A DNA stretch of 64,000 nt from an uncultured Candidatus Saccharibacteria bacterium (GCA_964514595.1 CAZEQZ010000001.1:182511-246510); one strand, 5' to 3'; shown: positions 27,899 through 42,800, counted from the stretch's first letter. A program made the numbers.

Positions 27899-30800
27899 TT
27901 ACTAGTTTTTCGCAATTTAAATTCGGGATCCTAAACTATACATTTTACCTGTTTTTTGCCTAAATGTTAAGCATTTAGTTGCATCAGCATAGACTCCAAA
28001 GTGAGCCTCCTATTACAATTTGCAGATATTTTTTCTCTGCTTTCTTGTATGATTTTTAGGAAAGCCAAATTTCTTTTGGAGCTATCAATGTTACCATTTT
28101 TTATATCTAATTCAAGTCTCTCTTTGAAAATCTCTTCCACAATTGTTACAAATAAGAGAGAACTTCCTTTATTTTTAGAATACTTCTCTACAATTTCAAA
28201 TTGAGCTATCAGATCCATTTCTAATATATTGTCTAGCGTATTGTCGCTCTCTTTCTCCTTTGAGATTTTGGAGTATATAACTTTTCCCCTAGATCTAATT
28301 GTGGGTAGAAGATTCTTCTCATTATCTACACAGAGTATATAGATACTACTATCTGAGGACTCTTCCAAAGTTTTAAGTAGTGCATTTTGGGCTTGTGAGG
28401 TGAGTTTTTCTGACTCGTATATTATCCCTACCTGTATCTTCTCTTGAAATGGTTTATACATCATTTCTTTCTGGAAATCCTTTACCTCCTCTATCCCTAT
28501 GCTGTTTTTTTCAGAAGAATCTAGGACATGTATATCTGGTGAATTATATATGTCCTTGTCATATATCTGTGCTAGTAGCTCCTCCAAGGGCTTTTGCTCT
28601 TTTGATTTATTAACTAGTATATATGTCATGTATCTATTTTATCACATGGCTCTGTCCCCTTGTCTTTTTTAGGAGGATGGAATAAACTGAAAGAAGAATA
28701 AGTTAAAAGATAATCTGCCCAATGTCTGTTGGAACTTCGTTGCTAAAACATCTTCAGAGTAAAGGTTTGATAGATGAAGAAAATTCAAGGAAAGTACTTC
28801 TAGAGAGAAGTCGTACCCAGAAGACTGAAGAGGTTATTATTCGTGAGCTAGGAATAGTTGATGATGTGAAGATAGCACAAGCAAAATCTGAGATTTTTGG
28901 TATTCCGTTTGTAGATTTGACGAGTCTGTCGATAAATGAGAGTGTGATTGCTGAGGTTAGTATAGATAATTTGAATAAGTATAAAGCGGTACCGTTTGAG
29001 AGAGGTCAGGATTTTGTGAAAATAGCTATGCAGGATCCTTTCGATATTCAAGCCACACAAGCCTTAGAAAGAAGATATCCCCCGGGTACTAAGATACAGG
29101 TATATATAACTACAAAGGAGGGAGTGGATTCCATATTAGAAAGAAGAGTTGGTGATGTAATGAGTTCGGAAGTTACGGAAGCTTTAGAGGATGTGGACGT
29201 TCCTGTGACAGAGATTAGTGAAGATCCAAATCTTTTTTCTAGTACGGATCTCTCTTCTGCGCCTGTGGCTAGGATAGTTAACTCAATGTTGCAATACGCT
29301 GTTACGTCCAAGGCGTCTGATATCCATATCGAGCCTATGGAGAAGAGAGTTAGGGTTAGGTTTAGAATTCATGGTGTTATGACTGAAAGGTTAACTCTTC
29401 CTAAAAACCTTAATCCGGCTATAGTTTCTAGAATTAAAATTCTGTCTAATCTTAAGATTGACGAAAGAAGAGTTCCGCAGGATGGTAGGTTCCCAATTAA
29501 GATTGGGAATGTGAAGATAGACTTGCGTGTTTCCGTTATGCCTACTATCCACGGAGAAAAGGTTGTTATGAGGTTGTTAGAATCTGAAACGGCAGACATT
29601 ACCCTAGAAAGTACTGGATTAAGAGGAAATGGATACAAAATCTTTGTTGATGCTTTAAGTGTTACAAATGGTATTGTATTGGTAACTGGTCCAACAGGTA
29701 GTGGTAAGACTAGGACTCTTGCTTGTTCCTTAATTAAGATAAATGATCCTAAGGTAAATATAATATCTTTGGAAAACCCAGTTGAAATTCGAATTCCTGG
29801 GGTTACTCAGATCCAAATAAATCCTGATGTTGGCCTTACATTTGCAAATGGTCTTAGGTCTGTATTGAGACAGGACCCTGACATAGTGATGGTTGGAGAG
29901 ATTCGAGATGAAGAGACTGCACAGCTTGCTGTACAGGCATCTCTAACAGGACACTTGGTTCTTTCAACTTTGCATACTAATAGTGCACCTGCAGCTATCC
30001 CAAGACTTTTGGATATGGGTATAGAACCATATCTTTTGGCTTCCACTGTACGATGTGTTGTGGCACAAAGGTTGCCTAGAAAAATATGTAGGGACTGTAT
30101 AGAAGCATATCCGATAACTCCTGAAGTTTTAAATAATATACTAGAGACAATGAAAGGAGCTAAGGATTTTGATTTAATCCCATATCTCACAAGGGTAGCC
30201 TCGGCATCGCAACATTTAGAGGAGAATAATGGTCACTCTGCTATGCGAGCACCTGAAGTTGGTCCCGATGGAAAACCAGTTGTATTTCTCTATAAAGGGA
30301 AAGGGTGTGACAAATGTGGAGGATCTGGATATTCTGGCAGGGTTGGTATATTTGAGGTACTTGATGTTAATGAAAGAATCAGTAGAATGATAATGGAAAA
30401 TGTTACTGATGCAAATATTAGAGATGCTGGCATAGAACAAGGAATGCTGACAATGATTCAGGATGGCTATTTGAAAGCCTTAGAAGGTATAACTACCCTG
30501 GAAGAAGTTCTGAGGGTTTCAAAAGAGTAAATTTTTGATAAACTATATTTATGGATCAAAATACTGCCCAAGATAATAGTACAGGAAATGTTCAGTTTAA
30601 CTATCCTGATTTCTCTCAAGGTACTCAATCATCTACCCAGCCTTCTCAGGGGAGAAATGATGAACAGAAGATAGAAGAGCTAAAAAAGAATCTACAAAAT
30701 CTTGTGAGTCAAGAGCAGGATAAGGTTGTGCCAGAAACTGCTCCTACAGCTCCACCTACTCCATCGGCTGTGCAAGAGGAACCAAAAGAAGAATCACAAT

Positions 30801-39800: not shown

Positions 39801-42800
39801 GGAGAGTTACGATTAGATCAGTTTGTAAATTCAACAAATAATTAATATGCCTACTACGTTAAACAAAACAGCTGGACAAGAGAGAACAAAGAAAGAAATA
39901 GAAGCTATAAGTGATAAAATTAAGGCTTCTAGGCTCAATATTAATGACATAATAATCCCTCTTTCTACGGGATTAGTATTAATTATGTTAGGAGTATTCG
40001 TATTTGTACCGATGATAAAAACTGCAATGGAATTTAGAACAGAGTATCGAGAAATAAGGGATAAGGAGAAGAAATTAGAGGAATTGGAAAATAAGCTTAA
40101 AAGTGTAGATGAGGGAACTTTTCAAATAGACCTTTTAAATGCAAAAGAAGTCATACCTAAAACATTAAGGGTCTCTAGTTTTATGTACTACATAGATACT
40201 TTGGCGAATGAGAAAAGACTTGTTTCTAGAACTTTGACAGCAGGAGATATTCAAGTTTCTGTGACAAAGAGAGATGAAGATAAGAAAGATAAAAGATCAT
40301 ATTTGGGGGTTAGTGGGCCATTGTCATATACTGGATCTATGGATAACATATTAGACTTCCTAGATAGTTTGTACTCGGCTTCTCCTTATATAATCTCCGC
40401 TGATAATGTCTCTTTAAAACAATCTGGTACTGAATGGAGAGTTACTCTTAATGTTACAGGTTATTATGTACCAGATAGAAGTATTAAAGTGGACCCGTAT
40501 CTTCCTTTTACAAGTTACACTCAACACCAGAGTATAATTGATATCTTCGCTGAAAAAGCAGAAAAACTAAGGTAGTTTATAATTCTTCGTCCATTAACAT
40601 ACTCTCACTGGAATCCTCCGCCTGAGTTGTATCTATATCATCAGGTTTGTGAGAATTGTCGTCCTTGATTAGTACTTTCACTCTCCTCTCATTTCTTATA
40701 GCATGAATAGTGACTAGATCCCTTATCGCATTTATGGTTCGACCCTTTCGACCAATCACAACACCTTTATCCGCCTCTGCGACATCAATGGTCAAAATAG
40801 TTAAACCTGGAAAGTCTATACTCTCCCTCTCTTCCACACTAACCGCATCAGGATTATTAACTATTGACTTAACAATATGTTCTAATAGCTCTTTCATTTC
40901 TAAGTAAAATATATTTTATTAAAATATTATACTACTCTTTCTCCTCATTTGTCTTCTTTTCAGTATTAGGCTTTGTAGAGCCCCTCTTAAGTCCCTTTAG
41001 AAGACCCTCTTTAACGAAATATTGAGCTACAGTATCAGAAGGTTGAGCACCCTTACTTAACCAGTACTCTGCCCTTTCTTTATCTATGTCAAAAGTAGAA
41101 GGCTTGTTTCTAGGATTATAATAGCCTATTTCTTCAACAGTTCTACCGTCCCTAGGTCTACTAGCTTCTACGATAACAACCCTGTAATGGGGTTGTCCTT
41201 TTCTACCTGTTCTTTTTAATCTAATCTTTAACATGAGCTGAATTCTATCAGATCAAATATTTTAATTCAAGGATACATCCTCTTTCTCTATTAAATCAAG
41301 AGCTTTTTGAGCTGCATCCTCCTCTGCCTTCTGTTTGCTAGGTCCAAAACCGGTACTTACTGTCTTTCCTCCCATCTTCAATCTAACTGTAAAGTATTTA
41401 TCATGATCTGGACCGTGTTCTTTTATAATTTCATAAACAGGAGTCACCTTATGTTGTGCTTGTATAACCTCCTGTACTTTGGTCTTAGGATCTATAAAGA
41501 GATCATTATCAACAATATGTTCGAGCTTCTTAAGTAGAGTTCTTTCAATAAACTTTTGGCATTCATCAATTCCTTTGTCTAAATATATTGCGCCGAGTAA
41601 AGCTTCGAACGCGTTTGCTAAAAGATAATCCTTGTCTCTCCCTCCCGAATCCTCCTCTCCCTTAGACATTAGTAAGTGTTCCCCAACTCCTATCCTTCTA
41701 GATTCTTCAGCGAGACTTTCAGTTCTTACGACCGCAGATCTTATTGCAGTGAGATCTCCCTCCGGTTTATCTGGATATTTATGATAAAGCTCGGACGATA
41801 TTACCAATTCTAATACAGCATCTCCTAAAAACTCCAATCTTTCGTTATTTCTTAATCCTCTACCCCTATTCTCATTAAGATATGATCTGTGAGTAAGTGC
41901 TCTTGTAAGAAGCTCCTTCTTAGAGAAAACAAATCCTATTTTATTCTCTAACTCTTCACTATTCATTATTTTCCTCCTTTTTAGTCTCTTCATATATTGC
42001 CCCTAGTACCCCATTTACGAATTTGCTACTAATCTCCCCTCCAAAATCTCTAGCAACCTCTATTGCCTCATCAATTGCTACTTTAGGAGGTGTGATCTTT
42101 GCTAAGAATCCTTCGAATATAGCTATTCTGAGTATTTGTAAATCAACTAACTTCATTTGACTAATTGGCCACTGTGGGGCGTGAGAAGCTATTATTTTAT
42201 CTATTTCCTCTGTATTCTCTTCCACACCATTTACAATATTTTCGTAAAGTTCTTTATTAAATTCTTCCATCTCGTTGATATCTAGCAGATCTTCAACGGT
42301 AATTTCTTCTGTGGGCATCCCCCCCTTTTTGAAATATTTGGAAAATAGCTCCTGTAGTGCAAGTATTCTAGCTTGATGTCTTGGATCTGTAGATCTTTTC
42401 ATATGGTATTACTTAGATTTTTTATAATTACCACAGTATTCGCACTCAAAGTGGCTTCTCTTTACGTTGCCACACTTAGAACATTTAGAAACAGATTTAA
42501 CATCTAAAGCATTATGTGCTCTTCTTCTGTTCTTCCTACCTTTTGATATTTTTCTTTTTGGTACTGCACCCATTATTAATTAGTTATATATTAAGCTTAG
42601 TGATTATATGTAATATGTTAATATATTTCAACAATTTATACTATCCAACTTTCCCGTATTTCGATTTCTTCGCCAGCCTTTATGTTCTGTTCAATAATAC
42701 CCTTAGCTAACTGACCCTCTATCCTATCTTGTATGTACCTTCTTAAAGGTCTGGCACCAAGACCAGGCTCATTGGCTTTATTTGCAATTAACATAGGGAT

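Follow-up and report, generated by a model that had tools for sequence, protein, structure and literature searches.

What kind of machine is encoded by the pilus genes at positions 28722-40575 of a 64,000-nucleotide stretch of DNA recorded under the name of an uncultured Candidatus Saccharibacteria bacterium (GCA_964514595.1 CAZEQZ010000001.1:182511-246510; the whole stretch is hereafter the window), and what part does a stand-alone CheY-like receiver play among them? Type IV pili (T4P) are thought to be the main organ with which bacteria of the Candidate Phyla Radiation (CPR) find and bind their hosts and possibly take up host DNA. Thirteen co-directional open reading frames (ORFs) fill the interval on the + strand. 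The initial annotation had read them, gene by gene, as a pilus locus, and searches against Pfam and NCBIfam together with fold matching bore this out, the assignment of PilN being no more than probable. The locus is very probably a type IVa-like pilus system of the CPR. Judged by sequence, it specifies a complete cytoplasmic-membrane machine composed of PilB, PilT, PilC, PilD, PilM-PilN-PilO, a major pilin, a paralog of that pilin, and three minor pilins. Both the machine and its secretin-less, single-locus organization have already been described for the CPR; what is new is the fixation of the receiver in the operon throughout one class, a pilin family apparently specific to that class, and a leader-peptide signature of Tyr at position -3 with Ala, Gly, or Ser at -1.

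A conserved chromosomal locus of the Dojkabacteria

Related loci were collected by scanning one genome per species, which yielded 80 loci, and orthologs were mapped by tblastn. The order pilB-pilT-pilC-pilA1-pilD-(pilA2)-mp1-mp2-mp3-REC-pilM-pilN-pilO (mp, minor pilin; REC, receiver) was found in virtually every sufficiently long locus. In 33 of 67 loci pilD is followed by a pilin gene before mp1 and so sits between two pilins; in 5 others tandem pilin copies precede pilD. On the upstream side the locus is bounded by holB-gyrB-gyrA, divergent from the pil genes, and on the downstream side by KH-rpsP-rnc-nusB-clpB, convergent with them; both flanks are syntenic in related genomes. Because gene order and both flanks are conserved, the region belongs to the stable core of the chromosome rather than to an island, and the comparison of sequences indicates that the pil locus is chromosomal and vertically inherited. 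Conservation across loci is uneven: median identity to the window protein is 83% for PilM, the best-conserved gene of the locus, 73% for PilB (60 loci), 70% for the receiver, 68% for PilC, 63% for PilT, 54% for PilA1, 52% for PilO, 48% for PilD, 44% for PilN, and 37-39% for the minor pilins.

The source organism (window G+C about 35%) is, by the affinities of its sequences, an ultra-small member of the class Dojkabacteria (candidate division WS6, CPR/Patescibacteria). Proteins identical to those of the window are encoded on a public contig of 760,270 bp, and the locus is also found in SRR10872652 and ERZ27252300. Homologs of the major pilin, the PilO-like protein, and the receiver that bear organism names are nearly all assigned to WS6/Dojkabacteria, the exceptions being one Candidatus Microgenomates and one Patescibacteria group entry for the PilO-like protein and two labels on short contigs, Exilispira and Pacearchaeota, for the receiver. 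Of the records for the 80 related loci, most bear the title Dojkabacteria, WS6, or 'uncultured Ca. Saccharibacteria', and a few bear another. Two side observations concern these names. Many metagenome-assembled genomes (MAGs) called 'uncultured Candidatus Saccharibacteria bacterium' (among loci L003-L082) carry a locus and flanks of the Dojkabacteria type, with proteins that are 70-90% identical, and the title on such MAGs looks like a generic or wrong label. The Exilispira and Pacearchaeota receiver homologs (P0281 and P0295), both on short contigs, are probably products of mis-binning.

Motors, platform, and peptidase

The locus opens with pilB (28722..30530; all genes of the locus are on the + strand), whose product of 602 amino acids (aa) is the extension ATPase (Pfam T2SSE 9.2e-124, MshEN 2.8e-12), with an N-terminal MshEN/T2SSE_N domain followed by an ATPase core bearing a Cys-rich motif. 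By eye, the N-terminal motif seems to lack the canonical Arg and Gln positions; cyclic di-GMP might in principle control PilB through MshEN. The retraction ATPase PilT (30551..32197; 548 aa) scores 453.5 bits against NCBIfam pilT_fam, for which the cut-off is 319.1, with residues 199-541 matching the full model, and carries the AISNLIREGK motif. These residues follow an N-terminal extension of low complexity, about 190 aa long (window 30551-31140). In 61 loci, the median distance from the end of pilB to the start of pilC corresponds to 545 aa, and the long form of PilT is therefore class-wide.

The platform protein PilC (32201..33412; 403 aa) matches Pfam T2SSF in two stretches (2.6e-59) and the NCBIfam GspF/PilC model over its full length. 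The prepilin peptidase and N-methyltransferase PilD (34113..34862; 249 aa) matches A24_N_bact (4.6e-24) and Peptidase_A24 (3e-08) and displays CxxC pairs as well as HDVKY and GLGD motifs.

The PilM-PilN-PilO group

At the distal end of the locus, the actin-like assembly protein PilM (38015..39046; 343 aa) is readily recognized, matching PilM_2 at 3.7e-51 and exceeding the NCBIfam pilM cut-off of 133 bits with a score of 195.5. The two genes that follow, pilN-like (39039..39845; 268 aa) and pilO-like (39847..40575; 242 aa), gave no significant Pfam match. The pilN-like protein has an INLIP motif just ahead of a single transmembrane (TM) helix, followed by an extracytoplasmic domain; a motif of this type before a TM helix is the PilM-binding signature of PilN, and N87, L88, and P90 within it are invariant in 23 orthologs. 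The Pfam PilN model matches below threshold, at 0.011 for the window protein and in 16 of the 23 orthologs (best 1.1e-4), and the alignment profile of the family finds Myxococcus PilN weakly in the PDB (E 0.41). Ahead of INLIP stands an N-terminal extension of about 85 aa rich in PT repeats (window 39039-39290); like the extension of PilT, it is absent from the canonical protein.

The pilO-like product combines a TM helix, a coiled coil, and an alpha/beta domain. Its sequence signal is weak (Pfam PilO matched 3 of 23 orthologs, best 2e-4), and its alignment profile matched no PDB sequence. Its AlphaFold2 (AF2) model, of mean predicted confidence (pLDDT) 76.7, gave a Foldseek search of the PDB in which the top four hits are all PilO: 3jc8_Oa of Myxococcus at 5.7e-5, followed by 2rjz_A, 5uvr, and 2rjz_B of Pseudomonas, with E values ranging from 5.7e-5 to 4.3e-4 and a probability of 1.00 each. 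When the pilN-like and pilO-like alignments were compared with each other by hhalign, the probability was 13.8%.

A machine without secretin

The initial annotation had remarked on the absence of PilQ and PilP, and this held on wider inspection. When essentially every window ORF of 150 aa or longer was compared with Pfam, secretin, PilP, histidine kinases, and chemotaxis components were all missing from the matches, and HATPase_c, HisKA, CheW, and MCP were without a match in the window save for the HATPase_c domain of GyrB. The initial annotation had stated that its reading would be refuted by a secretin or canonical PilP/Q found adjacent, just outside the window; no secretin or PilP lies in the 28 kb before the locus, in the 23 kb after it, or in the conserved flanks of related genomes. 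Since neither PilQ nor PilP is matched, the locus has the monoderm or CPR form rather than that of diderms. CPR cells are without an outer membrane and hence without PilQ (PMC6744442, PMC7143001), and because of this a secretin would not be needed.

Pilins and their leader peptides

Five ORFs of the locus are pilins by their class III signals, that is, a short basic leader, a small residue at -1, a hydrophobic residue at +1, and Glu at +5. The presumed major pilin PilA1 (33476..34036; 186 aa), a Pfam N_methyl protein whose gene has its own promoter and terminator (see below), begins with the leader MRRRFYEA followed by FTLVEM, and PilA2 (34871..35464; 197 aa; N_methyl 1.7e-05) with MAKRYKA followed by FTLVEL. 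The leaders of the minor pilins end in KIYPA before YTLLEL in minor pilin 1 (35521..36285; 254 aa; N_methyl 0.0064), in KYEA before LGFVEAL in minor pilin 2 (36282..36821; 179 aa), and in KYEG before FSLVEM in minor pilin 3 (36818..37546; 242 aa; N_methyl 2.5e-07). Pfam N_methyl thus matches four of the five window pilins; minor pilin 2, which has no such match, is identified by its class III signal-like site, and Glu at +5 is kept in 58 orthologs. Minor pilin 3 has orthologs in 54 loci. As noted in the initial annotation, the minor pilin genes overlap by 4 nt at both the mp1/mp2 and the mp2/mp3 junction.

The start of minor pilin 1 deserves care in annotation. The prepilin signal is included only when translation begins at the TTG at 35521. 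Public gene calls on identical contigs start the protein at the ATG at 35611 (224 aa), where the signal is lost, and minor pilin 1 is therefore not recognizable as a pilin in those records. The TTG start and the leader signature should both help annotation, given that Pfam misses most of these pilins.

PilA1 and PilA2 had been described as paralogs with a common C-terminal block. They are 43% identical (E 8e-43) and have in common the blocks GG..ATYYY, VCVSLGG..D, and C.GNG together with two invariant Cys, from which they are evidently true paralogs. Searching with PilA1 returned 446 homologs, of which those named by organism belong to WS6/Dojkabacteria, and the pilin family defined by the GG.ATY.Y and VCVSLGG blocks and the two Cys appears from these sequences to be specific to the class. 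The PilA1 profile matches type IVa pilins of the PDB at the N-terminal helix only. The AF2 model of PilA1 (pLDDT 89) adopts a lollipop fold, for which the best match is Thermus PilA4, then Clostridioides difficile PilA1.

Ala at -1 of the cleavage site, which the initial annotation had singled out as worth a second look, is indeed present in both PilA1 and PilA2; its status as an anomaly was rejected. In a survey of Gram-positive pilins, cleavage by PilD after Gly or Ala was the norm (PMC3244431), and within the class the -1 position is polymorphic. Among the best 120 of the 446 PilA1 homologs, the residue at -1 is Ala in 112 and Gly in 7, and in the species-level loci it varies between Ala, Gly, and Ser in all five pilin families, with Ala 54, Gly 20, and Ser 1 in PilA1 and Gly 39, Ala 14, and Ser 1 in minor pilin 3. 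Ala at -1 is a habit of the lineage. More constant is Tyr at -3, found in 74-96% of sequences in all five families (loci L003-L082). The combination of Tyr at -3 with Ala, Gly, or Ser at -1 suggests a class-specific recognition motif of PilD, which would cleave the prepilins after Ala, Gly, or Ser following the conserved Tyr.

Retractile pilus, competence pilus, or pseudopilus

The pilins bear on another reading of the locus, as a competence system of Com type or a pseudopilus resembling that of type II secretion systems (T2SS) rather than a retractile, type IVa-like pilus. The N-termini of the pilins give weak NCBIfam matches to ComGC, GspG, ComGD, and ComGE, PilB scores as well with GspE as with PilB, PilC likewise with GspF, and records of the Joint Genome Institute (JGI) label many of the pilin homologs 'pseudopilin PulG'. 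CPR pili have, moreover, been proposed to act in DNA uptake (PMC6744442). A role in DNA uptake is, however, compatible with a type IVa pilus (T4aP) identity, and the Com and Gsp matches of the pilins reflect the shared N-terminal helix only and fall far under the cut-offs, as do those to ComGA, ComGB, and ComGC. PilT, on the other hand, passes the pilT_fam cut-off over the full model, and PilM, a probable PilN, and PilO are present in the locus; PilT and PilMNO are not known from Com systems. The fold of the pilin model is likewise closest to T4 pilins. A Com-type or T2SS-like identity is thus very unlikely.

For the type IVa-like pilus, a working cycle can be outlined. The minor pilins would prime the filament, PilB would polymerize PilA1, and PilT would retract it. 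By analogy with related systems, such a pilus would probably serve in host attachment, twitching, and/or DNA uptake, functions for which the experimental basis is confined to the Saccharibacteria, in cultivated members of which T4P drive host binding and twitching (PMC11623550).

A promoter and terminator around the major pilin gene

The initial annotation had assigned pilA1 a promoter and a strong terminator of its own. A promoter-like TTGACA-N17-TAACTT lies at 33416..33444, and an intrinsic terminator follows the gene at 34058..34089, formed by the hairpin AAACCCCTC-TTCG-GAGGGGTTT (34058-34079) and a T-run. The pilA1 promoter escaped a generic sigma-70 scan, whose promoter-like sites are not enriched in the region (40 observed, 46.5 expected). 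Conservation was nevertheless clear: in 56-62 of 76 orthologous loci, TTGACA-N17-TAAYTT recurs some 60 nt ahead of pilA1, TTGACA itself being at about -60 in 56 of the 76, and the motif is found upstream of pilB, pilD, mp1, REC, and pilM in only 0-4 loci. An equivalent hairpin and U-run follows pilA1 in 68 of 74 loci, where its loops vary and some of its stems are altered. Both elements are thus supported by cross-species sequence conservation. A pairing of this kind usually marks a major pilin gene that is highly expressed and from which some transcription would continue into the genes downstream.

A further motif was observed near start codons. TAAAYTGYC-like sites lie 1-11 nt upstream of start codons that follow intergenic gaps (window 796-804, 35512-35520, 37589-37597, and 45758-45766 on the - strand), and related versions occur just upstream of the starts of pilB (28722), pilA1 (33476), and pilM (38015), of which the version before pilA1 is kept in relatives. 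The motif is not enriched (5 matches, 3.1 expected); four of the five matches abut a start codon, a pattern recognized post hoc. Shine-Dalgarno-like AGGAG is rare, and the motif may serve in translation initiation or as a leader element peculiar to the lineage.

A receiver fixed in the pilus operon

Between minor pilin 3 and pilM lies a gene for a CheY-like receiver of 128 aa (37601..37987; PF00072 6.8e-22), and it is this gene that sets the locus apart. The receiver is found in 46 of 46 loci that reach at least 2.5 kb past minor pilin 3. It is always about 125-133 aa long and without a second domain, both in 50 species-level loci and in the best 120 of 678 homologs. The residues expected of a phospho-acceptor pocket are E12/D13, D58, T89, Y108, and K111, and in an alignment of 50 sequences (the window and 49 orthologs) conservation of D13, D58, T89, Y108, and K111 is 98% or higher. 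The most conserved segment is beta5-alpha5, with a mean frequency of the commonest residue of 0.86. The gene is on the strand of its neighbors, separated from minor pilin 3 by 54 bp and from pilM by 27 bp, and no terminator was called in either gap; because of the common strand and the short gaps, it is probably co-transcribed with minor pilin 3 and pilM. From these features the receiver would be a single-domain response regulator integral to the locus.

Affinities of the receiver outside the class are generic. Its best PDB matches are Spo0F, CheY, and receiver domains of the OmpR family, and OmpR-family receivers are also among its best NCBIfam matches. A homolog search returned only relatives of at least 69% identity, of which those named by organism are nearly all Dojkabacteria; a search of representative sequences returned mostly multi-receiver proteins; and clustering at 50% left about six close clusters of stand-alone receivers, the only one with an organism name being Dojkabacteria. 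Public records already annotate the receiver as 'response regulator' and PilM under its own name. The main texts of PMC6744442, PMC11623550, and PMC7143001 mention neither response regulators nor histidine kinases and so describe no receiver in a CPR pilus locus, and a literature search for histidine kinases in Dojkabacteria found nothing.

A gene so placed might have no functional link to the pilus, being a mere passenger or the N-terminal part of a two-component regulator that has been split or has decayed. The JGI name, 'DNA-binding response OmpR family regulator', and the OmpR-family receivers among the best matches would fit such an origin. The constancy of its position and length argues strongly to the contrary, as do its conservation above that of most pil genes, its arrangement on the neighbors' strand with short gaps in which no terminator was called, and the nature of the gene that follows it, which is PilM and not an effector domain. 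That the receiver might turn out to be part of a split two-component gene, a concern raised at the outset, found no support: it is discrete in the 50 loci and the 120 best homologs. We regard a passenger or fragment as extremely improbable.

The receiver directly precedes pilM in 27 loci. In a subclade of Dojkabacteria (L015:13911-19363, L035:14014-20415), a fourth pilin-like membrane protein of 315-325 aa stands between minor pilin 3 and the receiver, and 2-3 large proteins (about 340-800 aa), rich in Cys and either secreted or membrane-bound, intervene between the receiver and pilM; they may be pilus-associated adhesins, and none is kinase-like. The receiver thus tracks the locus rather than pilM strictly.

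How might the receiver act?

The initial annotation had proposed phosphorylation-dependent control of extension or retraction by a receiver without cognate kinase. Its description of the gene as a stand-alone receiver is accurate, no output or kinase domain being adjacent, and the conserved phospho-acceptor residues agree with the proposed control, which itself stays an inference. In outline, D58 would be phosphorylated by an unlinked kinase or a small-molecule donor, and the phosphorylated receiver would most likely bind PilM, PilB, PilT, or PilC, biasing extension against retraction by analogy with CheY-like regulators of the PilG/PilH type. By this analogy, a receiver that binds a cytoplasmic pilus component when phosphorylated at D58, and so shifts the balance of extension and retraction, is a proposition about as likely to be right as wrong. 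A stronger version is tentative and rather unlikely: the receiver would be an obligatory, class-wide phospho-switch on PilM, PilB, or PilT that responds to host contact or metabolic state, with an orphan kinase or acetyl phosphate as donor and not a chemotaxis-like system. If true, it would constitute a minimal T4P control circuit, the first described for a CPR episymbiont.

A receiver without a dedicated kinase could work differently, as a sensor of acetyl phosphate or another metabolite phosphodonor, as a phosphate sink, or as an adaptor of the PilM platform that functions independently of phosphorylation. Neither the window nor the syntenic regions of 80 relatives yielded a kinase, the genomes of the class are small (the contig bearing the locus is about 760 kb), and in 27 loci the receiver lies just before pilM. 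The conservation of the phosphotransfer residues D13, D58, T89, and K111 speaks against a phosphorylation-independent role, however, and the absence of a kinase holds for the neighborhood of the locus only, such that the other 90% or so of the genome may differ. These alternatives are, on balance, unlikely.

Several observations do weigh against a type IVa-like pilus governed by a phosphorylated receiver. No kinase is encoded near the receiver in the window, and a crude scan for H-box, G1, and G2 motifs, covering the window and 82 loci (1.27 Mb, all of the same neighborhood), found none either. Adjacency of receiver and pilM is not obligatory, because about 4.5 kb intervenes in the subclade described above. 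PilB scores about 541 bits with each of the NCBIfam GspE and PilB models, under both equivalog cut-offs, and the assignment of PilN rests only on motif, position, and sub-threshold matches.

The locus introduces no new kind of machine; its significance is that one class keeps a single CheY-like receiver in its pilus operon, under greater constraint than most of the structural genes. The receiver is a concrete and very small candidate control point for pilus dynamics in an uncultured lineage.

Other features of the window

Elsewhere in the window, an ATPase of 850 aa (1776-5551) with weak matches to coupling proteins of the TrwB/VirD4 type and to HerA (DUF87) adjoins a LytR_C-domain protein. 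From these matches it could be part of a monoderm-like type IV secretion or conjugation system, as recently discussed for Patescibacteria, or a translocase of FtsK/HerA type. A tyrosine recombinase of 454 aa (11062-12426) matches Phage_integrase at residues 211-440; this span set against a model of 172 positions implies a sizeable insertion in the catalytic domain. GyrA (22826-25552, - strand; 908 aa) matches DNA_topoisoIV in two separate stretches, which hints at an insertion within its N-terminal domain. An envelope-related block (13354-22530, - strand) encodes a glycosyltransferase of 648 aa in which GT4 and GT2 are fused, along with a sortase, a D,D-carboxypeptidase of VanY type, and two large proteins of 581 and 633 aa that have no Pfam match. 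GC skew is very strong, reaching +0.40 (window 1-12000 and throughout), being positive over + strand genes and negative over - strand genes; a strong strand disparity in G and C is known from some Microgenomates genomes (PMC7143001).

Comparison with known systems

The T4P of Gram-positive bacteria such as Clostridium and Clostridioides (Imam et al., 2011, PMC3244431) likewise have no secretin, carry pilB, pilC, pilD, pilM, pilN, and pilO with pilins in operons, and cleave prepilins after Gly or Ala, and the pilin model has C. difficile PilA1 among its closest folds. The Dojkabacteria, which belong to the CPR, differ from them in the long disordered N-terminus of PilT, the PT-rich extension of PilN, the embedded receiver, and Tyr at -3.

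Single-domain regulators of CheY type that control T4P through the motors or through polarity are known from Pseudomonas, Synechocystis, and Xanthomonas (PMC8325320, PMC12632253, 10.1101/2021.06.11.447907, PMC13507683). PilG and PilH (Pseudomonas Pil-Chp; Synechocystis), PixG and PixH (Synechocystis), and DrdR (Xanthomonas) resemble the Dojkabacteria receiver in having a complete phospho-acceptor pocket and no enzymatic or DNA-binding output, in being genetically linked to T4P, and in their proposed mode of action, which is likewise binding to motor or platform. The Dojkabacteria receiver shows no specific sequence affinity to PilG or PilH and is without nearby CheA-, CheW-, or MCP-like genes; it is also a single receiver rather than one of an antagonistic pair, and it is embedded in the structural operon, with the minor pilins on one side and pilM on the other.

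The closest parallels are the T4P of other CPR bacteria, whose components co-localize in the genome without PilQ (Meheust et al., 2019, PMC6744442; Microgenomates Ch65, PMC7143001). These single-locus systems, including locus 1 of TM7x (PMC11623550), likewise comprise PilB, PilT, PilC, PilD, PilM, PilN, and PilO with several pilins, and in them, too, conserved machinery is combined with divergent, lineage-specific globular domains of the pilins. From these relatives the Dojkabacteria are distinguished by a fixed stand-alone receiver and, it appears, a pilin family of their own.

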